Notes under the pieces: generated by a model
Told to the model about the DNA's origin: nothing
Database searches by the model: none
The model's input: the letters and a program-made list of their open reading frames with translations, nothing else
Shown: piece after piece, positions 1-44,812 of the stretch
Position numbering within the stretch: position 1 is the first letter of the stretch
Layout of the letters: every line of letters begins with the position of its first letter
DNA from: a virus
Taxonomy: Duplodnaviria; Heunggongvirae; Uroviricota; Caudoviricetes
IMG/VR virus record: IMGVR_UViG_2585427779_000013
Location: 1-52,997 of that record
Reading direction: 5' to 3' (one strand)
Length of the DNA stretch: 52,997 nt
Program-made: the position numbers and the translations under genes

Positions 1-231
1 TTATGTATTATCTTTGGCTGACGTTAAACCAATCTGATCAAAGAACTGCATTACGTCCTGATAGCGGTACATAACGCCACGACCGTTACCAAGTACATCA
101 ACCGGGTCGGGGAACGGAGTTCCGTTCCGTTCCCATTTTTTACGCCATAAATAAAATGTTCCCCTGCTAATTCCACCAAGCATCCGGCAGATGGCAGGGC
201 GACTAAGAAGGATTGTCCCTGTTTTATCCAT
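1..231 (-). CDS. AlpA/Vis-like phage transcriptional regulator or excisionase-like protein (76 aa)
   Basis: Small basic protein with HTH-like segment (RGTFYLWRKKWERNGTPFP) typical of AlpA family; stop codon at 1-3; sits at the end of the minus-strand early arm where xis/alpA usually lies. Confidence 0.55.
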   Translation of the reverse strand: MDKTGTILLSRPAICRMLGGISRGTFYLWRKKWERNGTPFPDPVDVLGNGRGVMYRYQDVMQFFDQIGLTSAKDNT

Positions 232-8255: not shown

Positions 8256-8546
8256 ATGAGCGTTACAATTATATATGGTAAATGTGATAGCAAAATGAAT
8301 GCCAGGGAACGCAGAAGGATAAAAAGAGAAAACGAAAGAAAATCATCACCTGCAATCAATAAAACAGACAATGTGGATAAAGCTATTCGATTTGCAAACG
8401 AGGAAAGATGCAAACCAAATAGCATTAAAGAACGTCGCAAAGGATCAGTAAAATGGTATACGGAAAATGAAAGCGGCAGCTACTACCACGCAACGCAACC
8501 ACGCCATTTAGGGGAAAAACCCCTAGATAAAGTCCGCTATCATTAA
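8256..8546 (+). CDS. putative N-like antitermination protein (arginine-rich motif)
   Basis: 96 aa; segment MNARERRRIKRENERK resembles the ARM of lambda N (MDAQTRRRERRAEKQ) by recall; GGAG RBS before 8256; alternative start at ATG 8295 would place the ARM at the N-terminus. Confidence 0.45.
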   Translation: MSVTIIYGKCDSKMNARERRRIKRENERKSSPAINKTDNVDKAIRFANEERCKPNSIKERRKGSVKWYTENESGSYYHATQPRHLGEKPLDKVRYH

Positions 8547-10954: not shown

Positions 10955-11223
10955 TGAAAACGTGGGATGCAAAGGCTGGTGATCTTGTCGTATTGCCTGA
11001 ATATCGTGATGACCCTGGCTTGGTTGTGCTGAATAAGGGGAGCTACGATCAGCGCCCGTTACTGGTTAAATATCTTGACGGAACAATAATAGAGCCGCGT
11101 TTCTTTGACAATATTGAACTGAAGGCCCGAAATGTTCGCGTTAAGCCGTTCCGGGCTTATGCTGAAAACCACTGGCGGAAATTGTTCGCCGGGCTGAATG
11201 GGATGTTCGGCGTATGGCTATAA
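10954..11223 (+). CDS. hypothetical protein (89 aa)
   Basis: ORF, coupled to neighbours. Confidence 0.45.
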   Translation: MKTWDAKAGDLVVLPEYRDDPGLVVLNKGSYDQRPLLVKYLDGTIIEPRFFDNIELKARNVRVKPFRAYAENHWRKLFAGLNGMFGVWL

Positions 11224-11405
11224 AAGAAGTAAAGGTTAAACACCTGAAAGGTGGGGAGCGCTTAAAGGCGTGGTGGGGCCGTGAATTTACAGCTACTGCT
11301 TTCAGATTCAGGCAAGGCGGAGAGGTCATTATATACGACGAAAACATGGATGAAGTTGGTAAATGGCATCTTGAGCAATACGTCGAGGTGTTAAATGAAA
11401 ATTAA
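11214..11405 (+). CDS. hypothetical protein (63 aa)
   Basis: ORF, overlaps neighbours by a few nt. Confidence 0.4.
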   Translation: MAIKEVKVKHLKGGERLKAWWGREFTATAFRFRQGGEVIIYDENMDEVGKWHLEQYVEVLNEN

Positions 11406-11727
11406 ATTCCATAAAGCATATGATAGCGAAACAAACAAGCTATCACTATTTATCGAATTCGAACGCCGGATCGTGGTTGTGCCCTGGGCGCGGCGCTTCA
11501 ATGACGCTGGCGGACGCAGACAATTCGCGGTTGATATGCTGTTACGCGGCTGCGGCCTTATGCGTCCGCTATCTGATTTAAAACGAATGATGCCGGGATC
11601 GTTCGGTCAGATTGATGAAATAGAAATAAGCCCGGAAGAACTGAAACGGGAGCGTGATTTATTCCTTTCAAGCGAAGGAAACCCGTTTAATTCAGAAACT
11701 GAAATGAAATGGCATCACCCACTATAA
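11395..11727 (+). CDS. hypothetical protein (110 aa)
   Basis: ORF in early cluster. Confidence 0.45.
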   Translation: MKIKFHKAYDSETNKLSLFIEFERRIVVVPWARRFNDAGGRRQFAVDMLLRGCGLMRPLSDLKRMMPGSFGQIDEIEISPEELKRERDLFLSSEGNPFNSETEMKWHHPL

Positions 11728-11740
11728 AAGGATAAATATC

Positions 11741-12361
11741 ATGAAAGACATCAAAACGGCTTATTCACTCGGCAGCGAAGGCATGTTAATCACTCGCTAC
11801 ACTGAAGACGCAAGTTTTCATGAAGTTGAAATTAAAGATTATCACGAAGTATTGAAAGATATGGAAGCTGGCAAGTATGACGCTGATTTGAATCTGGCGT
11901 TACAGATTGTTGATATTGTGATGGATGCGTCGATCCGCGATTATATGTCTTTAAATGCTGAAGAAAAAACTGCCGTAGCTCGTTATGTCTTCTGCCTTAC
12001 TTTCGTAAAACGAATGGAAGAGGAATATGGACGCGTACCAGTGCCGGAAGAGGTTGATCCGCTCGCGTTCGGAAGTGCTGTTATTTTCCCGTTGAACAAG
12101 GATCAGCTTGGTAGTGTTTCACTGCATTCTATGCGCGGCCTGATGAAAAACATCTTTGAAGTTAAGATGTTGCAGAAATGCATTGAGGAAGGCCACAAAG
12201 AAGAAGAAGTAAAAGCGTTTATGCCGCTGTTTTACGGTGAAATGGTTGGCAATGATATGCGCGCAAATGATTTCGGTGTGCAGGCGGCTATCGCTGTGCT
12301 TAATGATGCACGGAAAAACGCACAGCCGATGCCTGAACAGGAAAAACGTGTACTGCATTAA
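11741..12361 (+). CDS. hypothetical protein (206 aa)
   Basis: Long ORF with good coding continuity. Confidence 0.5.
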   Translation: MKDIKTAYSLGSEGMLITRYTEDASFHEVEIKDYHEVLKDMEAGKYDADLNLALQIVDIVMDASIRDYMSLNAEEKTAVARYVFCLTFVKRMEEEYGRVPVPEEVDPLAFGSAVIFPLNKDQLGSVSLHSMRGLMKNIFEVKMLQKCIEEGHKEEEVKAFMPLFYGEMVGNDMRANDFGVQAAIAVLNDARKNAQPMPEQEKRVLH

Positions 12362-15897: not shown

Positions 15898-16056
15898 AGT
15901 TTACAAAATGGCGTCATTGCGTGATATGGATCACATAATGGCGCTTTTCGCCTTGTTCTGGTGTATCCATTTTGTATACTTCAAGCAAACAAAATGCTCT
16001 TTAAAAATCCGGCAGCGCTGAAATGCGTAGAAATCACCTGAAAAGGAGAGAGCATT

Positions 16057-17257: not shown

Positions 17258-17436
17258 AAAACGAAGTTAAAGATCTGCAAATAGATATTCAGCGCGACGA
17301 GCGTGATTTAGAGACGGTCCGACAAATCCAGGCTTTCCACATGCGCGAATTACTTGCGCTGAAAGAGTTCGAAAGAAAGCTGGTGCAATCCATTTCTGAT
17401 CGTAAACGGCTGGCGGCACGTTATGAGGGCAAATAA
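17254..17436 (+). CDS. hypothetical coiled-coil protein (60 aa)
   Basis: ATGA-coupled ORF between rusA and Q-like gene. Confidence 0.4.
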   Translation: MKNEVKDLQIDIQRDERDLETVRQIQAFHMRELLALKEFERKLVQSISDRKRLAARYEGK

Positions 17437-18164
17437 TGAATTTAGAATCCATTCTAAAATTCCACTTTCCTAAATCACCGCGATTATCTGACGAAAGCCG
17501 GGGCACGTCCCCGGACGCTCTTAATACGACGGATGCGCTAACAGCTGCGGGTATGGCGCAATCGCGCGTAGAGCTTGGCTATAGCGCTTTTTTGGGAAAG
17601 ATGGAGCTATCACAAGCCGAAAAACATAAGGCCGTAGTTTTGCTTACAGAGCGTTTAAGGGCTATGGCAAAAGATTATGAATACGTTATGGAACTGGACG
17701 AGGCCAAACGCAATGATCTCATTATTCTTGTTGCCGTTTTCGCGTTTCGGGATTATTGCCAGAGTGCGGCGACCGAAAAAGTTTGCCCTAAGTGCGGCGG
17801 TAACGGGCTTTCACCACATCCATATTGTGAGTACGCATCGACAGTTTGCTCGCGGTGCGGCGGCAAAGGCTACGTTAAAAACCATTGCCAGCGGTGCAAG
17901 GGTCGTGGCGAAGTACCGGATAAAGCAGCCAGCGAGGCGGCGGAAATGCCAGTGTTCAAAACATGCCAGCACTGCGGCGGGCGCGGGTACTCGCGTTTCC
18001 CTGTAGATCTTGTCCGGCAGGCGGTTAATCAGCTTGTTTTCCCGGTAAGCCGATCAACATGGTGGAAGAAATACCGGGCTTTCTATGAAGACGCCATTGC
18101 TGAATTGTTCAAAGAAGAGGCGCGGGCTGACAACGAAATTAAACGAGTGACGCGGGGTGAATAA
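17436..18164 (+). CDS. putative late antiterminator (Q-like) with DnaJ-type zinc finger
   Basis: 242 aa; four CxxCxGxG repeats (CPKCGGNG, CSRCGGKG, CQRCKGRG, CQHCGGRG); located directly after ninG-rusA where lambdoid phages place Q. Confidence 0.45.
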   Translation: MNLESILKFHFPKSPRLSDESRGTSPDALNTTDALTAAGMAQSRVELGYSAFLGKMELSQAEKHKAVVLLTERLRAMAKDYEYVMELDEAKRNDLIILVAVFAFRDYCQSAATEKVCPKCGGNGLSPHPYCEYASTVCSRCGGKGYVKNHCQRCKGRGEVPDKAASEAAEMPVFKTCQHCGGRGYSRFPVDLVRQAVNQLVFPVSRSTWWKKYRAFYEDAIAELFKEEARADNEIKRVTRGE

Positions 18165-18364
18165 TGGATAAGCTGGAAATAAACGATCAGTTTGCCGTTA
18201 TCTTATTTGAAGATAAAACAGGCGGCGCATGGTGTAAGAAAGTCACTGGCGCGGAAGCGCGTTTAATATTGGGTATGGCAAGCGCGTTAAACGAAGGTGA
18301 ATTGCCAGCCGTGCCAATTGAGCCAGTTCATATTTACGGACGGAGTAACGACAATGAAGCCTAA
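18164..18364 (+). CDS. hypothetical protein (66 aa)
   Basis: ATGA-coupled ORF. Confidence 0.4.
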   Translation: MDKLEINDQFAVILFEDKTGGAWCKKVTGAEARLILGMASALNEGELPAVPIEPVHIYGRSNDNEA

Positions 18365-18623
18365 ATTAAAGGAACATATATTTGCAAAGCTGGTTAATGA
18401 CCTGACATTATCTGCGCGGTTGTGTCGTGATACGCAACAATTAAGGGCGTGGATAGCAAGGGATTTAAGAAAATATATTGAACCAGGCAGGCCAGGCGGA
18501 GAAATCACGATGGACGAAGCCATCAAGCGCCGTTCGGCTGAATGGTCAGTAAGTAATACAGGATTAACCGGATACATCGAAGGCTATAACGACTGTTTAC
18601 AGGATCATGGCGATGGCAAGTAA
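18354..18623 (+). CDS. hypothetical protein (89 aa)
   Basis: ATG 18354 with GGAG RBS. Confidence 0.45.
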   Translation: MKPKLKEHIFAKLVNDLTLSARLCRDTQQLRAWIARDLRKYIEPGRPGGEITMDEAIKRRSAEWSVSNTGLTGYIEGYNDCLQDHGDGK

Positions 18624-18921
18624 AGATCTGCATTTAAACCTGAAAGGAGAATACTTTTACGCCATCCGGGCGGGAAAGAAGGTGGAAGAATACAGGCTTT
18701 ACAATGACTATTGGCGTAAACGCCTGGAAGGGCGGGAATATGAACGCCTGATCATTAAGCTGGGGTATCCAGCCAGCCACGAAGCGCACCGGATTATAAA
18801 CCTGCCTTATTTCGGGTACGAAGTAAAAACTATCACGCATCCATTATTCGGCCCTGATCCTGTTAAGGTATTCGCAATTAAGTGTGATGTGAATTGGATG
18901 TTAAGGTGGGGTGAGCAATGA
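18607..18921 (+). CDS. hypothetical protein (104 aa)
   Basis: ORF in packed accessory cluster. Confidence 0.45.
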   Translation: MAMASKDLHLNLKGEYFYAIRAGKKVEEYRLYNDYWRKRLEGREYERLIIKLGYPASHEAHRIINLPYFGYEVKTITHPLFGPDPVKVFAIKCDVNWMLRWGEQ

Positions 18922-19127
18922 AAAAAGCTGGCCTGTCAATTAGCCGTGTATTGTGCGGCGACGAAAACGAGATCCGCATAGAAATTAAATTTAGCATGGG
19001 TAAAGAGATAATTCTTTACACGACACCTGAAAACATGACGCTGGCGCTTACTGGTAAATCTGAAACGCCGTGCGACGTCCGGTTACGCAATATTGAAATT
19101 AAGGAATTAAGGAAGGGTGAAAAATGA
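18918..19127 (+). CDS. hypothetical protein (69 aa)
   Basis: ATGA-coupled ORF. Confidence 0.4.
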   Translation: MKKAGLSISRVLCGDENEIRIEIKFSMGKEIILYTTPENMTLALTGKSETPCDVRLRNIEIKELRKGEK

Positions 19128-19339
19128 AAAGTAACCGTAAACGCCTGGTAAGGGCGTATGATAAAGCATTAAAGGCTTTTGACGACCTGCGACACAATAA
19201 GCGCCAGCGCCGCAAATGGGCGCGTATGCTTGTTTATGAGTGGCATTATTCTGATGCTTTTATGGAAAGTGCGCCGCTATTAACACAAGAACAAGCCGAC
19301 GAAGTAGCTAACGATAACGTTTATTATATGATGTGGTGA
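19124..19339 (+). CDS. hypothetical protein (71 aa)
   Basis: ATGA-coupled ORF. Confidence 0.4.
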   Translation: MKSNRKRLVRAYDKALKAFDDLRHNKRQRRKWARMLVYEWHYSDAFMESAPLLTQEQADEVANDNVYYMMW

Positions 19340-19343
19340 TAAT

Positions 19344-19709
19344 ATGCAAATAATCATTGATTACCTTTGCCACGCTGCAAATACGCTTTTCGGTTTTTAT
19401 CAGCAACCATTCCTGAAAGAATGGGACGAAATGCTTAATGACATCCTCGACAAAGGATTAATAATGGAATTCGGGGAGCTAACAATCAAATTTAATTACG
19501 AAGGCAAAGAATATGACATATGGGTAGGCAACAGATGGTATTCATACGGGCATATTTATTCAATTGGCGGTAAATACATTAAACGAAGTCAGGAATTTAG
19601 ACCGCGCTTCCGCACAATGCGACGACTGCATGACCTGCATATGAAGATATTTGGAGATCAGGAAGCACGGGAATTATTCAAAATTTACGGGGATAAATCA
19701 TGGAGCTAA
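19344..19709 (+). CDS. hypothetical protein (121 aa)
   Basis: ORF in packed cluster. Confidence 0.45.
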   Translation: MQIIIDYLCHAANTLFGFYQQPFLKEWDEMLNDILDKGLIMEFGELTIKFNYEGKEYDIWVGNRWYSYGHIYSIGGKYIKRSQEFRPRFRTMRRLHDLHMKIFGDQEARELFKIYGDKSWS

Positions 19710-19930
19710 AAATCTGGCAGGCTATCGACGTAGTTGATAATGAATTAACAATGTTTGCCACTGACGGAAAACGCGTGGTGATCGCCACATGGACGCACAA
19801 CCATGATGATATTGTTTTTCGTCGCAAAGCTGCGGAATGGCTTTTCTCTGATGAAGGCTACACGATGAACATTGCACAGCTTGCAAGAATGAAGGATGAA
19901 AAGCTGGTAGACAGCTACACAACTGCATAA
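19700..19930 (+). CDS. hypothetical small protein (76 aa), member of apparent paralog family
   Basis: Shares a loose pattern (G..Y… D.G..W.F) with neighbouring small ORFs. Confidence 0.4.
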   Translation: MELKIWQAIDVVDNELTMFATDGKRVVIATWTHNHDDIVFRRKAAEWLFSDEGYTMNIAQLARMKDEKLVDSYTTA

Positions 19931-19940
19931 CGGGGTAAAT

Positions 19941-20174
19941 ATGCGTATTTATGAACACAAGCGGGATAAAACCCGCTTTTTTGTTCGTGCTGGCGTGGCG
20001 TACCAGTATCACGACTGCGGATATATTGAGGCGCTTGCTTACGACATGGATTTCGAACAAGAAAAAGAATGGTTTGACTTTAAGATTTACCGTAAGCGCA
20101 AGCCAACGCGTGACGAACGACACGCTATCCGGGACTTTTTAATCAGCATAGACCGCTGGGAGGCAGACGAATGA
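19941..20174 (+). CDS. hypothetical small protein (77 aa)
   Basis: ORF in packed cluster. Confidence 0.4.
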   Translation: MRIYEHKRDKTRFFVRAGVAYQYHDCGYIEALAYDMDFEQEKEWFDFKIYRKRKPTRDERHAIRDFLISIDRWEADE

Positions 20175-20398
20175 AAGTTAAATTCTTGCACGATCACGGA
20201 TACCCGTCATTGAAACAGGTTGTTGGTAAGGTCGTTAATGTCGTTCATAGCGATGATATTACTTGCATGATTAATGGTGCTGATCTCATTGCTGCTGGTG
20301 CTGATGACCATTACATCAATCCGGCGTGGTCGTATACGTTCAGCATGGGCGATTTCGTCGGGGACAAGGGGCGCGGGCTTGAGATTGTAGAGGATTAA
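20171..20398 (+). CDS. hypothetical small protein (75 aa)
   Basis: ATGA-coupled ORF. Confidence 0.4.
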   Translation: MKVKFLHDHGYPSLKQVVGKVVNVVHSDDITCMINGADLIAAGADDHYINPAWSYTFSMGDFVGDKGRGLEIVED

Positions 20399-20402
20399 CG
20401 GT

Positions 20403-20618
20403 ATGGACGTTTACGAAGATCTCTACCTACAGACCAATAGCCGCACTTTTTATTTTCTGAAAAGCGGCGTCGTATATCGCAGCGACGACGGGGTGATAAT
20501 GAAAGAGTGGTTATTTAAGCGTAAAGACCTACTCGAAGATCTGGTTTTTGCCGGGATATTTCGTAAACGTCCGGCTAACCTGGAAGAAGAAATGTTGATC
20601 GACGAGGTGTTAAAATGA
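20403..20618 (+). CDS. hypothetical small protein (71 aa)
   Basis: ORF in packed cluster. Confidence 0.4.
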   Translation: MDVYEDLYLQTNSRTFYFLKSGVVYRSDDGVIMKEWLFKRKDLLEDLVFAGIFRKRPANLEEEMLIDEVLK

Positions 20619-20860
20619 AAGTGAATTATTTCAGGGCAAAAGACAAGGCAACAGGAAAGCGGGTGGCTATCCTGGTTAATGAAGCAAATTATATGTTTGT
20701 TCTCCAGCCGTGGTGCATGGCTGACTATAACGATGATTATCGTCGTCACGCTGCGCGGCGGGCGGTCGGGATGAAAGGCTGGCAACCGCGCGACATGCTT
20801 AATTATTGCGACTGGAATCTGATAGCAAAATACACGGTAGATTATAAAGGGGTTTTCTGA
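20615..20860 (+). CDS. hypothetical small protein (81 aa)
   Basis: ATGA-coupled ORF. Confidence 0.4.
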   Translation: MKVNYFRAKDKATGKRVAILVNEANYMFVLQPWCMADYNDDYRRHAARRAVGMKGWQPRDMLNYCDWNLIAKYTVDYKGVF

Positions 20861-20862
20861 TT

Positions 20863-21078
20863 ATGTTTGCAAGATGCGTTTATTCTGACACTACATGCTT
20901 TACTACTGGCGAACTATATAGCGTTGATCTTCTTAATGGGTGCAAGCGCGGCGCGGGCGGTATTCATTATGTAAAAGATAATGATGGCGATGCGTGGCAA
21001 TTTTACGGCGATTACGCAAAAGGGTTTGTTAAGGGTAGTTTTGATAATCGTGTGATGGCGCGCTTTGTTAAGTGGTGA
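20863..21078 (+). CDS. hypothetical small protein (71 aa), paralog-like
   Basis: FTTGELYSV…DGDAWQFYGDY pattern recurs in neighbours. Confidence 0.4.
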   Translation: MFARCVYSDTTCFTTGELYSVDLLNGCKRGAGGIHYVKDNDGDAWQFYGDYAKGFVKGSFDNRVMARFVKW

Positions 21079-21087
21079 GGTGGTGTT

Positions 21088-21327
21088 ATGAGACGGAACC
21101 ATAGATACCAGTGCACATACTCACGATGCAGCGCGTTTTTTAAGAATGGCAAGATCTACGAAGTCGGCGCGGCATTGGTTGACGCAAAGGATCAGGAATA
21201 TATTCACGCCATTACTGACGACCAGGGCCAGTTATGGCGATTTTATAAGATGGGGTGTGGCACGGCGCTTGTTTATGCGCGTGCTGGTGGTGGTGCTTTT
21301 GCTGCGTTTTCGTATGTAGGGGTATGA
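21088..21327 (+). CDS. hypothetical small protein (79 aa), paralog-like
   Basis: FKNGKIYEV…DQGQLWRFYKMG pattern. Confidence 0.4.
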   Translation: MRRNHRYQCTYSRCSAFFKNGKIYEVGAALVDAKDQEYIHAITDDQGQLWRFYKMGCGTALVYARAGGGAFAAFSYVGV

Positions 21328-21548
21328 AAATGATTTTAACGTGTAACGAATCGGAATTGGGCTGTTTTGAGGAAGGCGTACAGTATACGGCTGAAAAACC
21401 GATGGGGTTGTCGCCTAAATTTCCGTTTATCGTCGTGACTGACACTTACGGTCACTTATGGTATGCAGAGCCGCTAGGCGGTATTGGTCGTTATGTTGTC
21501 CGTAGTTCGGATGGGGCGATGAAGGTTACTTTTACGGAAGAAGCATAA
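21324..21548 (+). CDS. hypothetical small protein (74 aa), paralog-like
   Basis: ATG overlapping upstream stop; FEEGVQYTA…YGHLWYAE pattern. Confidence 0.4.
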   Translation: MKMILTCNESELGCFEEGVQYTAEKPMGLSPKFPFIVVTDTYGHLWYAEPLGGIGRYVVRSSDGAMKVTFTEEA

Positions 21549-21646
21549 ATGTGATCTACCCTTCAAAGTTTACAGAATGGCATTGCTCTGGCGGTGCCAT
21601 TTTGTTATAAAGAAGCTGAAGAGAGAACGATGCGGAGGGTAGAAAA

Positions 21647-21919
21647 ATGAAACGCTGGATTAACGAAGAAACAGAGGCCCGCTTCAATGCAATTTGGGAT
21701 CTGATTGAAAAAGAGGACGGCGTTTCTAGTCCCTACCTGAACAATCTTGAGTTCCACTATGTAGAAGCGATGAACGCAGAGCATGACCACGAAGGCGGTG
21801 CCGATGAATTCGCTAAAAAATACGGCTTCGATGATGCAAACCATATGATTAACAACGTGGTGATGCAGGCAGAGGAAGACTACGAATGCAAATCACTTGA
21901 ATTCGCACGCATGGCATAA
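21647..21919 (+). CDS. hypothetical acidic protein (90 aa)
   Basis: GGAGGG RBS; preceded by motif pair and a 20-codon upstream ORF. Confidence 0.45.
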   Translation: MKRWINEETEARFNAIWDLIEKEDGVSSPYLNNLEFHYVEAMNAEHDHEGGADEFAKKYGFDDANHMINNVVMQAEEDYECKSLEFARMA

Positions 21920-21929
21920 GGGGGAAAAC

Positions 21930-22070
21930 ATGAACGCTAACGCTAAATATCCGGCCTGGGTCTTTGAACTATACGCCCGCTATTTTGAAGAACTGGCACC
22001 AGGTGAAGAAGCATTAAGCATTGACGAATACGCGGAGTGTTTAGGATTCAAGGGGGACGAAGAAGAATAA
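21930..22070 (+). CDS. small acidic protein (46 aa)
   Basis: AGGGGGAAA RBS then ATG; not in track. Confidence 0.35.
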   Translation: MNANAKYPAWVFELYARYFEELAPGEEALSIDEYAECLGFKGDEEE

Positions 22071-22113
22071 AACACGGGGCCGGATGGCCCCATCAAATCA
22101 GAAGGGTGTAATT

Positions 22114-22413
22114 ATGAAAAGCGCTAAATTCATTGCGTGCTGTTTTGTTGAAGTCCCTAACGATGATGTTTTCTGCAATTATGAATTTAAAGACAGTTTA
22201 GGCAGATCTCATGTTGTTGTTGGTAAGCGCGGCGACTGGTTATATATCACTGATGGAGACAGGATCTTCACTAAAAACCAGTTGTTAAGAATAAAGGCAG
22301 AAAATGATGAAATACCAGTAGGTAATATGGGGATTATGAATTATCACGCTGGTTTATCGTTAAAGCACGATGCGGTAAATAAAGCGCGTAGCTTACCTGG
22401 TGCGGAGTTTTAA
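22114..22413 (+). CDS. hypothetical protein (99 aa)
   Basis: ATG 22114 with GAAGGGTG RBS. Confidence 0.45.
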   Translation: MKSAKFIACCFVEVPNDDVFCNYEFKDSLGRSHVVVGKRGDWLYITDGDRIFTKNQLLRIKAENDEIPVGNMGIMNYHAGLSLKHDAVNKARSLPGAEF

Positions 22414-22436
22414 TTTATTACGAAGGGGAATAATAA

Positions 22437-22760
22437 ATGTCTAAATTTATCAGCGTTAAGGTTTTTCGTGGCAATTTTCCAGAAGATAAAGAAATTGGAC
22501 AATTCGCAGGTGAACGTGGAGTATGTTTCCGTGTAGCTACTGAAGACGATGCGCACGTTAAATGCTTTCACGTATCTGAACCGCCTTTTAATGCAGAACA
22601 TCTTGAAGACCTGAATAGAATTAAAAGCCTTATTTTTGCCTATCTGGCGTTCCCTGGCATAGCTAATGCTGATGTGGGATTGGTTGGCGCTGAACTGGTT
22701 GCGGAATACAAAATGACTGAAGGTGTAACAGGGGGAATTGACATTGAGCGCATCAAGTAA
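22437..22760 (+). CDS. hypothetical protein (107 aa)
   Basis: ORF in packed cluster. Confidence 0.45.
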   Translation: MSKFISVKVFRGNFPEDKEIGQFAGERGVCFRVATEDDAHVKCFHVSEPPFNAEHLEDLNRIKSLIFAYLAFPGIANADVGLVGAELVAEYKMTEGVTGGIDIERIK

Positions 22761-22995
22761 GCTATACAAGATCAGGTGTAAAGGCGAATACCCTGGCTTT
22801 ACGATTGGTTGCGAATACCTGGGCCACATTGGGTACGGCCCTTTCGGTGAGTTGGGGATGAGCACGCTGGACGATGACGGCGACAGCCGGACGCTTGATC
22901 TTGATTCTGATGATTTCGAATACATCCCGCCAGTCACTTACCGTGACGTCGATGATTTCCTGGCTGAACAAGAAGACGATGAAGAGGATGATTAA
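22738..22995 (+). CDS. hypothetical protein with acidic C-terminus (85 aa)
   Basis: ORF; C-terminal EQEDDEEDD. Confidence 0.4.
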   Translation: MTLSASSKLYKIRCKGEYPGFTIGCEYLGHIGYGPFGELGMSTLDDDGDSRTLDLDSDDFEYIPPVTYRDVDDFLAEQEDDEEDD

Positions 22996-22997
22996 CT

Positions 22998-23138
22998 ATG
23001 GATGACGAATACGTTAATAATTTTATTGTTATGTTTCTTAGTGAAAACTGGCGCATGTTTGAACATTATTGTTTTGAGCGCGGGGAAAATGCTGAAGAAA
23101 TATATCAATATTTAGGCGGGGAGAAAGAGGATGATTGA
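22998..23138 (+). CDS. small protein (46 aa)
   Basis: ATG ORF not in track; overlaps next start. Confidence 0.3.
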   Translation: MDDEYVNNFIVMFLSENWRMFEHYCFERGENAEEIYQYLGGEKEDD

Positions 23139-23328
23139 ATGCCTTATTATTGCGGTTATTCTCCTTTACCTGGCTGGCGTAATTTTAATGGGCGCTTTTC
23201 AGAAAGCTGTTGATAGTGACGGCGTCATTTGGTTCGAGCTAGTCTTCTGGCCTTTCATTACGATATACGCTTTCACTGATGCTATGCGCATTAACATCAT
23301 GCGGGAAATTAAGGAGCGCAAAAAATGA
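23131..23328 (+). CDS. small membrane protein (65 aa)
   Basis: Two predicted TM helices (MIECLIIAVILLYLAGVILMGAF…). Confidence 0.45.
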   Translation: MIECLIIAVILLYLAGVILMGAFQKAVDSDGVIWFELVFWPFITIYAFTDAMRINIMREIKERKK

Positions 23329-23495
23329 TTGAAGACGGTATCTATTTGCACAAGTTATTTGACATCGCTTATCTGGTTAAAGGTGACAAGGTGATGATTC
23401 AGAATCCAGAAAAACCATACTGGGAATCAAGCGAGATGGATCGGTGGCATATGCAAATGTTGCTTGATAATGGCCTGATATACAGAAAGCAGTAA
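23325..23495 (+). CDS. hypothetical protein (56 aa)
   Basis: ATGA-coupled ORF ending just before candidate late promoter. Confidence 0.35.
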   Translation: MIEDGIYLHKLFDIAYLVKGDKVMIQNPEKPYWESSEMDRWHMQMLLDNGLIYRKQ

Positions 23496-23503
23496 AGCCG
23501 TAT

Positions 23504-23532
23504 TTGTGGGTCGAAAACAAACGGATTAAAAT
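23504..23532 (+). promoter_or_regulatory. candidate late promoter (PR'-like)
   Basis: TTGTGG, 17-bp spacer, TAAAAT; about 30 nt upstream of a strong terminator and 70 nt upstream of the holin start. Confidence 0.4.
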
Positions 23533-23560
23533 ATTACCTAACAATGCGAAACTGTAACTA

Positions 23561-23586
23561 CCCGGCCCCGTGCCGGGTTTTTGCTT
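23561..23586 (+). terminator. rho-independent terminator (tR'-like) upstream of lysis cassette
   Basis: GC stem CCCGGC-CCCGT-GCCGGG followed by TTTTTGCTTTGTT. Confidence 0.65.
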
Positions 23587-23602
23587 TGTTGGAGGAAAAT
23601 CT

Positions 23603-23803
23603 ATGTTCGACAAAATACGGGAGGCGTGCGCGTATGCAGTAGGGGCCGTAACGGCCTTTTTTGGTGCGATAACCATTAATGATGTTGCTGTCTTTGTGGG
23701 TATCTTATCAACCGTAGGCACATTTGCCGTTAATTATTACTTCAAATCACAGGAGAACAAGCGAGCGCAAGAGGAACACGACGCGCGAATGGGGAATAAG
23801 TAA
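23603..23803 (+). CDS. holin (pinholin-like, two TM helices)
   Basis: GGAGG RBS; 66 aa with two TM helices and charged C-terminus; immediately precedes SAR endolysin as in phage 21. Confidence 0.7.
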
Positions 23804-23804
23804 C

Positions 23805-24296
23805 ATGATTAGCCAATCGCTGAAAAATAAGATTATTGCGGCGGCGGCTGGTGGGGCGATCGCTATTGCGGGGATGATGATAAAAGATCTTGAAGGCGTT
23901 GAGTATAAGCCGTACAGAGATGTCATCGGTGTTTACACGATATGTTATGGACACGTCGGAAAAGACATCATGCTTGGGAAGACTTACACGCAATCAGAAT
24001 GCGATGCTTTGTTAAATAAAGATCTACACAAGACCGCAAAAGCGATTGACCCATATATCAAGGTCGAAATATCAGATTTTACCCGCGCTGCACTTTATTC
24101 CTTCGCCTATAACGTAGGCACTACCAACTTCAAAACATCAACCTTATTAAAGCTACTCAATGACGGCAAGAAATCAGAAGCGTGCGCACAGCTTAAACGC
24201 TGGATTTATGCTGGCGGTAAGCAGTGGCAAGGGTTAATTAACCGCCGTGATGTTGAATATGCCGTTTGCGAATGGGGTGAGACATGGACAAGGTGA
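23805..24296 (+). CDS. SAR endolysin (lysozyme, T4/P1 Lyz type)
   Basis: N-terminal Gly/Ala-rich SAR helix, then [34 protein letters not shown]… closely resembling phage 21 R / P1 Lyz by recall; track ORF starts upstream at 23724. Confidence 0.85.
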
Positions 24297-24754
24297 AGAC
24301 GTTAATTATCGCCGTTGTTGTTTGCATTATTGCCGGGCTGACCGCCGTAACGTGTTATTACCAGAGTGAGGCGGCAAGGTTACAGGAAGAAGTCACGGTG
24401 ACGCAAGGTGCACTAAAGACAGCAAGTAACACTATTCAGCAGATGAAGGATCGGAACGCCGAACTGTCAAAACTTGATAAGAGGTATCACGATGAGATTA
24501 AAGCTATCAGATCTGACATTGCCGATCTGCGTGCTGGCATTGATAGCGGTGCTATCCGGTTGCACGTCAACGCCGAGCCAGTGCGATTGCTCGACAATAC
24601 CGGAACCGCCAGCCGCATTGATGGAGCCACCTGTAGACTCACTCCAGACGCTGAATCGGCTTATCTATCCCTCAGAGAACAACTAAAAGAGAAAGATGCG
24701 AAGATCGCCGGACTTCAGAGCTATATCAAAACGCAGTGCTTACGCAAAAAATAA
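24284..24754 (+). CDS. Rz-like i-spanin
   Basis: 156 aa; N-terminal TM helix, coiled coil, C-terminal pattern similar to lambda Rz. Confidence 0.8.
24492..24686 (+). CDS. Rz1-like o-spanin lipoprotein embedded in Rz (+1 frame)
   Basis: [24 protein letters not shown] lipobox then Pro-rich region, like lambda Rz1. Confidence 0.75.
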   Translation: MRLKLSDLTLPICVLALIAVLSGCTSTPSQCDCSTIPEPPAALMEPPVDSLQTLNRLIYPSENN

Positions 24755-24986
24755 CAGCGCGTGGACGTGTCGCCGTTTCCGCCAGCCAGCCATAACCGGG
24801 TCAATCCTTCCCGCGAGCGACGGCGGAATAGTCAAAAACACGTAATACCGGATCATCCATCCCATTAACAGGTCAGGCGCTACCTGGGTAGAAGAAAGCG
24901 CCATTCTCCAGTTTTATAAAATTCTAAAAACGGTACTCATGCAGCGCCGTTTTTAGTGTTTTATAGCATTTGCCTATGGTGGAGAT

Positions 24987-25559
24987 ATGTTAACACTAGA
25001 CGAACTAGACAGGATTTTATTCTGTGATGTTGAAAATGGTTTGCTTTACTGGAAATCACGCCCGCGTAGTGACTTTAGCAATGATTTTACTTGCAGGATG
25101 TTTAATTTTAAGGCCGGGAAGATAGCTGGCGGTATTAATGGCGACGGATACGTCGTTATCCATCATAACGGTAAACCTATATTTGCTCATGATGCCGTAT
25201 GGCTTTTTGCTGGTAATGAATTGATAGATGGGCTTGTTATAGATCACATAAACCATATAAGGAGCGATAACAGGCTAAAAAATCTTAGAATGGTTAGTGA
25301 GTTAACTAATTCAAGAAATCAAAAACTTCATAGCAATAACATTACGGGATATAGCGGGGTAAGAAAAACCAAATCAGGAAAATGGTCCGCGCACATACAT
25401 GTAAACGGTAAGGAAAGGCAAATAGGGACATTTTTAACGATTGATGAGGCTGTTAAAGCCAGAAAGAACGCTGAAGCAATTAACGGTTATCATGATAATC
25501 ACGGGCGAGACATCTATGTTGATCTGCCATATATAGACCCGTGGAATAGAATAAATTAA
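24987..25559 (+). CDS. HNH homing endonuclease (HNH plus AP2-like DNA-binding domain)
   Basis: 190 aa; DGLVIDHINHIRSDNRLKNLRMVSELTNSRN and GYSGVRK…W.A motifs; GGTGGAGA RBS. Confidence 0.75.
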   Translation: MLTLDELDRILFCDVENGLLYWKSRPRSDFSNDFTCRMFNFKAGKIAGGINGDGYVVIHHNGKPIFAHDAVWLFAGNELIDGLVIDHINHIRSDNRLKNLRMVSELTNSRNQKLHSNNITGYSGVRKTKSGKWSAHIHVNGKERQIGTFLTIDEAVKARKNAEAINGYHDNHGRDIYVDLPYIDPWNRIN

Positions 25560-37754: not shown

Positions 37755-38075
37755 TTATGCTATTTTTTCGTAAAGCACATTCATCTGGGTGCGAATCACT
37801 GTTAATATATTGATTGCTGCGTTCTTATCAATGCGTTTATTCGCTACTATTTTTGTTTTCCCATCAATAACAACCAGATCTGCGTGCAATACATGGTTGA
37901 AGTTAATAATGTAATAATACTGTTTATCGCCAACATGTTGAACATATGCACCATTTAGATTTCCTTTATACCCACAATCACGCTCTGCGACACCGAAGTC
38001 AAATTCGCGGTTCATCTTGCGATTATATGCTACTTGTTTATGTTCCCATTTTCTCATCCATTCATCGCGCTTCAT
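37755..38075 (-). CDS. hypothetical moron protein (106 aa)
   Basis: Reverse-strand ORF inside tail cluster, coupled to upstream lipoprotein gene. Confidence 0.5.
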   Translation of the reverse strand: MKRDEWMRKWEHKQVAYNRKMNREFDFGVAERDCGYKGNLNGAYVQHVGDKQYYYIINFNHVLHADLVVIDGKTKIVANKRIDKNAAINILTVIRTQMNVLYEKIA

Positions 38076-44107: not shown

Positions 44108-44812
44108 ATGCGCAATATACCTACAGAGATGATTATTGATTCCGTGGACGCTGGTGTGGGCGCGGTGATTGACTTGTTCGAACTGGACTTGTCGCCCCTG
44201 GGTGGCGAGGTTATCCGCTTCCATTCCGGCGCGAATGGCTATTACGGCCCGGTTATCTGGAAGGGATTAACTTACAACAGCTACCCGATCGAGGCTACTG
44301 GCTTCGAAATGAAAAACGAGGGCGTTTATTCGCGGCCTCAAATGGTTGTAGCTAATATCGGCGGGCTAATCACAGGGATGAATAACGACTTCAACGACCT
44401 GCGAGGAATGAAGGTTACGCGCCGCCAGGTGGAAGTAAAATACCTGGACGCCGTTAACTTCCCAAACGGCAATCCAGACGCAGATCCATCTATTGAGGCT
44501 GTATCTTTTTACGTCGTGGAGGCCATGAGCGAGGAAACAGCGGATCAGGTGCAATATGAGCTGTCAACGCCAATTGATGCTGATAAGGCCGTTATCCCTG
44601 GGCGCACCATCCTTGCTGACGTTTGCCAGTGGCAATACAGAGGCGACGGGTGTATGTACGCTGGCGGACCAGTAGCAAACGATAAAGACGAGCCGACAAG
44701 CGATCCTAAAGCCGACAGATGCAGCCACCGTCTAAGCGGTTGTCGTTTGCGTTTCCCGCGTCCAAATCCGTTACCGATTTCCTGTTTCCCTGGTTCCAGC
44801 AAGGTAGGTTAA
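44108..44812 (+). CDS. minor tail protein L (lambda gpL-like)
   Basis: 234 aa; C-terminal Cys cluster (CSHRLSGCRLRF) as in gpL; AGAAGGTGAG RBS. Confidence 0.7.
   Translation: MRNIPTEMIIDSVDAGVGAVIDLFELDLSPLGGEVIRFHSGANGYYGPVIWKGLTYNSYPIEATGFEMKNEGVYSRPQMVVANIGGLITGMNNDFNDLRGMKVTRRQVEVKYLDAVNFPNGNPDADPSIEAVSFYVVEAMSEETADQVQYELSTPIDADKAVIPGRTILADVCQWQYRGDGCMYAGGPVANDKDEPTSDPKADRCSHRLSGCRLRFPRPNPLPISCFPGSSKVG

Follow-up and report, generated by a model that had tools for sequence, protein, structure and literature searches.

A putative lambda-Q-type late control cassette at the lysis genes of an mEpimmI-group coliphage, 5.3 kb from the Q gene

Introduction

How might the lysis and virion genes of a temperate phage be switched on when the promoter-like sequence and terminator that precede them lie several kilobases from the only gene for a Q-like antiterminator? 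This question is raised by the window, by which we mean the whole 52,997-nucleotide stretch of DNA analyzed here. Its sequence marks the window as a temperate coliphage from the mEpimmI group, related to phage mEp021; region 22000-25000 is 87-91% identical to seven phage records (mEp010, mEp013, mEp021, mEp044, mEp515, mEp554 and MagusPhagus). The mEpimmI phages are described, in the accessible part of PMC11893012, as Nus-dependent, non-lambdoid temperate coliphages that also need a Q-lambda-like protein.

At lambda pR', a -10-like element, AACGAT at +1 to +6, induces pausing (PMC4005639), letting sigma70 hold polymerase at +16 for Q loading (PMC4005639, PMC9388147). A sequence-only reading of the window had proposed a similar PR'-qut-tR' arrangement, consisting of a good sigma70-like promoter, a strong intrinsic terminator shortly downstream and the ribosome binding site (RBS) of the holin gene, with the Q-like gene unusually far away. 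All of the letters that it described (TTGTGG, 17 nt, TAAAAT, the hairpin and the holin RBS) are present where it placed them. The features of the locus, including a pause-like element that it had overlooked, are as follows.

23504-23509, + strand: putative -35 hexamer TTGTGG, 3/6 consensus, weak and unconserved
23514-23526, + strand: AAACAAAYRGAT, conserved segment of the spacer; judged only by where it lies, a candidate Q-binding element
23527-23532, + strand: -10 hexamer TAAAAT, 5/6 consensus, invariant
23540-23545, + strand: -10-like element AACAAT, at predicted +1 to +6 (start at 23539/23540), a candidate sigma-dependent pause element
23560-23589, + strand: intrinsic terminator, the putative tR' equivalent (T-tract TTTTTGCTTTGT after a GC-rich 7-bp stem with a 5-nt loop), spanning roughly +21 to +45
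23591-23595, + strand: holin RBS, GGAGG
23603-23803, + strand: class II (HP1-type) holin gene (PF16080, E = 7e-16; PHROG 20), first gene of the putative late operon
23805-24296, + strand: endolysin (lysozyme) gene (PF00959, E = 5e-43)
24284-24754, + strand: Rz-like spanin gene (PF03245, E = 5.5e-24)

Sequences compared

The comparison set comprised 44 close IMG/VR loci, found via the holin protein and taken with 8-kb flanks, two E. coli prophages and mEp021. A set of 50 copies of the cassette provided counts for the -35, the -10, their spacing and the upstream alleles. For comparison of promoter layout, the regions just downstream of Q were examined in P22, HK225, SfV, Bp96115 and IMG/VR contig L052, along with lambda.

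In more distant holin relatives (L048-L064) the regions upstream of holin are unrelated to that of the window, a search for the cassette motif in other species yielded only chance matches in unrelated taxa, and a search for Q among GTDB species representatives found nothing. Rfam produced zero matches at the gathering threshold across the whole window; over 23499-23590 there is a sub-threshold, chance match to the rnk leader (23 bits, vs a 55-bit cutoff). No tRNA or tmRNA was found by a dedicated search.

Results

A full-length Q homolog far from the lysis genes

Two features upstream of the cassette define the problem.

17436-18164, + strand: Q-lambda-family late antiterminator gene, 242 aa
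18164-23495, + strand: array of ~24 small, closely packed genes without known function (from the ORF list), content varying among relatives

The gene previously singled out as Q-like proved to be a genuine, full-length homolog of lambda Q: its product matches PF03589 (E = 8e-32), PHROG 127 (E = 7e-79) and the Q-lambda cryo-EM chain of PDB 7UBM (E = 1e-38), and is 35% identical to lambda Q over the full length (BLASTP). It differs from lambda Q by an extra, Cys-rich insert of 33 aa (residues ~115-150) in the DNA-contacting zinc-ribbon arm, containing additional CxxC motifs. Across the group this insert alone is hypervariable, with its cysteines conserved, as are the N-terminus, the HTH body and the C-terminus. 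Outside the group, the nearest Q proteins (35-38% identity) are those of the Bp96115/SE1Spa and HK225/SfV types, which likewise exceed lambda Q in length.

Q ends at 18164 and the putative -35 begins at 23504, bearing out the separation of 5.3 kb; among relatives, the distance from Q to holin ranges from 2.0 kb (in mEp021) to 6.8 kb (44 loci). The canonical Q cassette consists of the Q gene plus an adjacent transcription unit (PMC9388147), and in six of six Q-lambda-family members inspected the cassette follows Q directly. The lambda Q stop codon, at 44509, is ~45 bp before the -35; the P22 promoter, almost identical to that of lambda, lies 43 bp after gene 23, with no intervening gene array; and the Bp96115/HK225/SfV-type cassettes, unlike that of the window, are less than ~100 bp from the Q stop codon and have a good -35. 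Given the canonical description and these six cases, calling the separation unusual is fair, but it is a property of the whole group and not of this genome alone.

The intervening genes provide few clues to function, 18 of the 20 ORFs scanned in 18164-23495 belonging to PHROG families of unknown function. Loci L001-L047 contain from 8 to 27 + strand genes in this array, which varies in content and length among phages that are alike in other respects. A minus-strand ORF at 22410-22937 was rejected as the shadow of two + strand genes with PHROG matches. The array also holds a strong terminator-like hairpin on the minus strand (22074-22093; 8 bp, 6 of them GC, then GTTTTATT), which falls between two genes of the + strand and has no minus-strand gene in its vicinity.

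Sites nearer to Q were considered as alternative locations for PR'. A promoter directly after Q was rejected, as the next ORF overlaps the Q stop codon, leaving no intergenic gap, and no promoter-like site is found there. An AACGAT at 18182 was likewise rejected, promoter-like hexamers at usable spacing being absent (by eye). A third site, at 19714-19752, has the form CTGGCA-16-GATAAT-5-AACAAT and stands ~200 nt before a hairpin at 19959; it was rejected because relatives often carry GATAAC, and ATCTAT, GTCTAT, AAGTAT or AACCAT in place of AACAAT, drift that amounts to ordinary synonymous change in a coding region.

The hairpin downstream of this third site (19956-19988; AAGCGGG-ATAAAA-CCCGCTT followed by TTTTTGTT; -10.6 kcal/mol) is terminator-like and falls within codons 6-16 of ORF 19941-20174, a core small gene of the array. 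Hardly any variation is seen in it across 45 related loci: third-codon-position diversity is 0.01 within the hairpin vs 0.246 elsewhere in the gene. In mEp021, the gene pair to which this gene belongs comes straight after Q.

The promoter match is weak and its -35 is not conserved

The description of a good sigma70-like promoter holds for the letters and the 17-nt spacing but overstates the quality. The site at 23504-23532 is not listed by a consensus promoter scan, as its -35, matching in only three of six positions, falls below the scan threshold. Hexamer pairs that are equal or better number 93 on the + strand of the window and 116 on the - strand, ~2 per kb per strand, and are thus rarer than in shuffled sequences (130 +/- 11), so that the promoter match by itself is at chance level.

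Two classes of upstream allele were distinguished among the 50 copies. Class A (37/50) reads GCCGTATTTGT[GAT][GT], includes the -35 variants TTGTGG, TTGTAG, TTGTAT and TTGTTG, and keeps its TTG at a distance of precisely 17 nt from the -10. Class B (13/50) reads CCATAATCGCGCAT, placing TCGCGC at the -35 position; since the isolated phage MagusPhagus belongs to this class, the TTG is dispensable for viability. Either allele (class A GCCGTATTTGT..., class B CCATAATCGCGC...) stays conserved no matter which ORF comes before it, and there is no extended -10, in the class B copies included. All six reference PR' promoters (lambda, P22, HK225, SfV, Bp96115 and L052), in contrast, have good -35 hexamers, that of lambda being TTGACT (5/6) vs the 3/6 TTGTGG, or no -35, in the group of the window.

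One explanation for so poor a -35, in all copies, would be an activator-dependent late promoter, at which the invariant -10 is used with the help of a phage or host factor bound upstream, such a factor being needed for want of a usable -35. Q, or a protein from the small-gene array, with its ~24 genes of unknown function, could serve as activator, besides or instead of antiterminating. The absence of the -35 in class B and the conservation of each upstream allele whatever gene stands before it would agree with this explanation. However, the analysis turned up no candidate for the activator, and with two upstream alleles that are unrelated, either two activators would be needed or none. Activation of initiation is not a known property of Q-lambda, and a terminator right after the start is a hallmark of antitermination control rather than of activation; we consider a promoter of this kind quite improbable.

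The cassette is conserved as a module

What stands above chance, unlike the promoter match alone, is the arrangement as a whole and its conservation in sequence. Within the 130 nt upstream of holin, the stretch from 23514 to the ATG is almost identical in all relatives, which share a cassette of the form AAACAAAYRGAT-TAAAAT-AYTNNC-TAACAATGCGAAAYTGTAAYT-hairpin-TTTTTGCTTTGTTGGAGG. Nucleotide diversity in the non-coding core (23514-23602) is 0.056, compared with 0.129 and 0.215 at third codon positions of holin and endolysin, respectively, a 2- to 4-fold lower diversity in the core than at synonymous positions in the genes on either side. Indels are absent from the part of the core that precedes the hairpin loop, and the length from the -35 position to the pause element is constant in the 50 copies. 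The hairpin stem is fixed save for one A-to-G change that keeps a G-U pair, while its loop varies in sequence and length. The cassette is retained where the upstream gene differs, and also in two loci with a different holin allele, which argues that it is a module under selection of its own.

The lysis cassette is separated from the gene for the small terminase subunit by an HNH endonuclease gene (24987-25559; PF13392, PHROG 99); the genes that two prophages (L002 and L003) have in its place are called only hypothetical proteins by PGAP.

The 17-nt spacer between the hexamers includes AAACAAAC, and its conserved part, AAACAAAYRGAT, is nearly invariant in all copies, whatever gene stands upstream. 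In lambda the Q-binding element sits between -35 and -10 (PMC9388147). No covariation was found between the Q allele and the class A or class B upstream allele; Q alleles that are not tied to either class, together with variation confined to the insert, are compatible with, without proving, a single shared Q-binding site in the conserved spacer.

A -10-like element in the layout of the Q family

Seven nucleotides 3' of TAAAAT, and followed by GCG, lies AACAAT, which is invariant, and at fixed spacing to the -10, in the 50 copies. The layout is common to the window and lambda, which reads TAAATT-TGACTC-AACGAT-GGG vs TAAAAT, 7 nt, AACAAT-GCG here; the two share the Q family (PF03589), a -10 followed by an element at +1 to +6, and a G-rich triplet. 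In the five loci compared, a -35 is followed after ~17 nt by a -10, after 5-7 nt by AACGAT, TAACAGT or TAATAAT, by a G-rich triplet and, 10-45 nt on, by a terminator, the pause-element pattern after Q in the compared phages being AAC[GA][AG]T or AATAAT. In the Bp96115, HK225 and SfV types, whose promoters are sequence-inferred, the -10 is followed by 5-6 nt, (T)AACAGT or AACGAT, and a terminator 25-45 nt later; Bp96115, with the closest Q from outside the group (38% identity), has CCCTAACAGT vs CCTAACAAT in the window.

When the window was searched systematically for -10 hexamers with a -10-like hexamer downstream, 30 + strand matches were obtained, so that the pair alone is common. AACAAT occurs in only two others of those pairs, one in ninG, upstream of Q, and one at the rejected site 19714-19752.

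Conservation of the elements downstream of the -35 raises the further possibility of a promoter-independent Q-loading site, a stand-alone qut inside a long transcription unit, at which early-operon polymerase that had kept or regained sigma70 would pause at AACAAT or TAAAAT and be modified by Q. Class B, which lacks a -35 yet keeps all of the downstream elements, is what such a site would look like, and the cassette does end a continuous, gapless array of + strand genes. Sigma70 is, in addition, able to engage elongation complexes from solution. To be set against this are the exact 17-nt distance at which class A keeps its TTG, the invariant TAAAAT at promoter-like spacing from the pause element, which is what a promoter would predict, and the fact that all characterized Q proteins load on promoter-proximal paused complexes (PMC9388147). 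We give a site of this kind very little credence.

The terminator, the leader RNA and early antitermination

The hairpin at 23560-23578 (ACCCGGC-CCCGT-GCCGGGT, six GC pairs in a 7-bp stem, then TTTTGCTTTG) has a predicted free energy of -12.5 kcal/mol on its own, and the 52-nt leader one of -20.2 kcal/mol (z = -3.9; no shuffle equaled it). A terminator scan places it among the two best in 11 kb, and five related phage records carry a terminator annotation for it, its ortholog before holin in mEp021 being TERM_5; the strength attributed to it by the sequence-only reading is thus upheld. The legend to Fig. 7 of PMC11893012, within the accessible part of that paper, lists t1, t2 and t5 as experimentally demonstrated terminators, and from the GenBank numbering we infer that t5 is TERM_5, the hairpin before holin.

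An invariant block of the leader, CTAACAATGCGAAA, is complementary to UUUUGCUUUGUU, just 3' of the hairpin, and part of its conservation could therefore operate at the RNA level. The predicted 5' end of the leader, AACAAUGCGAAA (leader at window 23539-23590), can pair with UUUUGCUUUGUU, which would lengthen the stem, with an 8-nt bulge in between, in the direction of the holin Shine-Dalgarno sequence. As all of the paired positions are invariant, covariation speaks neither for nor against the extended stem.

Two C/T differences six bases apart, at 23552 and 23558, are almost perfectly linked among relatives (AACTGTAACT vs AATTGTAATT); they lie near the predicted pause position and may merely mark two haplotypes. 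A small ORF starting from the ATG at 23544 was rejected, having no RBS and being shifted in frame by 1-nt indels of the loop or T-tract in some relatives.

The window also encodes the elements of an early antitermination system, located upstream of the terminator at 23560.

8256-8543, + strand: N-like early antiterminator gene, gp17 homolog, 92.7% identity to mEp021 gp17 (tblastn)
15995-16030, + strand: nutR2-like site, with boxA-like GCTCTTTAAAAA and a small, weak hairpin with a GAAA-containing loop (by eye)

The boxA-like site (~15996-16030) is just upstream of the block that contains ninF, ninG, rusA and Q, and is probably the nutR2 described for the group, its position agreeing with that given for nutR2, downstream of the cytosine methyltransferase gene, in the accessible part of PMC11893012. 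There, citing Valencia-Toxqui 2023, Gp17 is presented as an N-like antiterminator that acts at nutL, nutR1 and nutR2, and Gp17-dependent read-through of terminators is reported in mEp021. In mEp021 itself (L071), the repressor gene gp15 (11218-11814) is on the same strand as the N-like, early and late genes and is directly followed by TERM_1, unlike the divergent cI/cro layout of lambda.

These elements supply the basis for the remaining alternative, in which there is a terminator but no promoter: the hairpin at 23560 would end or attenuate a long, N-dependent early rightward operon, and the late genes would be reached by polymerase from the early promoter, modified by Gp17 at nutR1 and nutR2 and perhaps loaded with Q elsewhere. 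The conserved block would then serve the RNA, as the AACAAUGCGAAA/UUUUGCUUUGUU stem, stabilizing it or partly masking the holin RBS. The gp17 homolog and the boxA-like site (~15996), the read-through reported for mEp021, the weak or absent -35, the predicted extended pairing of the leader and the second conserved terminator-like hairpin (19956-19988), which is also in the path of early transcription, are all in keeping with this alternative. However, RNA pairing leaves unexplained both the invariant -10, GATTAAAATA, and the fixed, Q-family-like spacing between -10 and AACAAT, and the extended stem, with every paired position invariant, has no covariation behind it. A conserved, full-length Q, moreover, needs a sigma-dependent pause site, for which no other candidate was found in the window. 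A terminator without a promoter is in our view unlikely. In lambda, N-modified polymerase passes the late terminator at a low level, and read-through by the N-like antiterminator is a live rival here or a co-mechanism.

Discussion

We propose, with a probability of about 0.6, that 23504-23589 is a lambda-Q-type late promoter, Q-loading and terminator cassette that lies at the lysis genes and is acted on in trans by the product of a distant Q gene. The parallel with lambda PR'-qut-tR' drawn by the sequence-only reading gains from the Q homology, the AACAAT pause-like element, the order of the elements and their conservation, and loses from a -35 that is weak and unconserved.

Under the proposed mechanism, Q would be made late in the N-dependent early rightward transcript, and host RNA polymerase would start at ~23539/23540. 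Sigma70 would re-bind AACAAT at +1 to +6, holding the polymerase at a promoter-proximal pause near +15. Without Q, the polymerase would escape only to terminate at the hairpin and T-tract (+21 to +45), releasing an RNA of ~45 nt and leaving the lysis and virion genes off. Q, bound to DNA between -35 and -10, would load on the paused polymerase, which would then ignore this and later terminators, and the resulting read-through would switch on holin, endolysin and spanin as well as the packaging and structural genes downstream. Action in trans on a site 5.3 kb away would set this Q apart from those of lambda, P22 and the other relatives inspected.

Lambda, like the window, has an intrinsic terminator upstream of its holin gene and N-type early antitermination farther upstream, but its terminated RNA (6S RNA) is 194 nt long vs the ~45 nt predicted here. 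P22, whose gene 23 product is also a Q-lambda-family protein, provides a closer match: P-late starts at 37887 and the annotated terminator, at 37917-37945, corresponds to +31 to +59, so that a very short terminated leader is normal in the family and the 194-nt RNA of lambda is the outlier. The P22 T-tract, TTTTTGCGTTTT, also resembles that of the window, TTTTTGCTTTGTT.

The mechanism itself is textbook, and the value of the present analysis lies in annotation and comparison rather than in concept. A late promoter, pause element or Q target site at this position is unnamed in the mEp021 GenBank record and in the accessible published descriptions; the accessible part of PMC11893012 describes no late promoter, the word 'promoter' occurring in it once, for Ptac. 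The combination of a weak or dispensable -35 with a distant Q is probably a variant absent from the accessible literature and records. It is conceivable, though a long shot, that Q loads on sigma-containing polymerase of the early operon, or that its enlarged, hypervariable zinc-ribbon arm replaces recognition of the -35; if either were true, Q action would be uncoupled both from pausing close to a strong, constitutive promoter and from cis-adjacency of the Q gene.

If the proposed cassette is real, it would represent the late-gene switch of the mEpimmI coliphages, a group for which we found no late promoter described and whose members, in one study, are as common in human feces as lambdoid phages. 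Prophage annotation pipelines should then seek late promoters beside lysis genes, and not only beside Q. With Q acting in trans on a distant site, the ~24 small genes between Q and the cassette would be assigned to the early operon rather than to the late one. A lambda-type Q could, finally, have 2-7 kb of exchangeable genes standing between it and its target, which bears on how strictly Q proteins act in cis.
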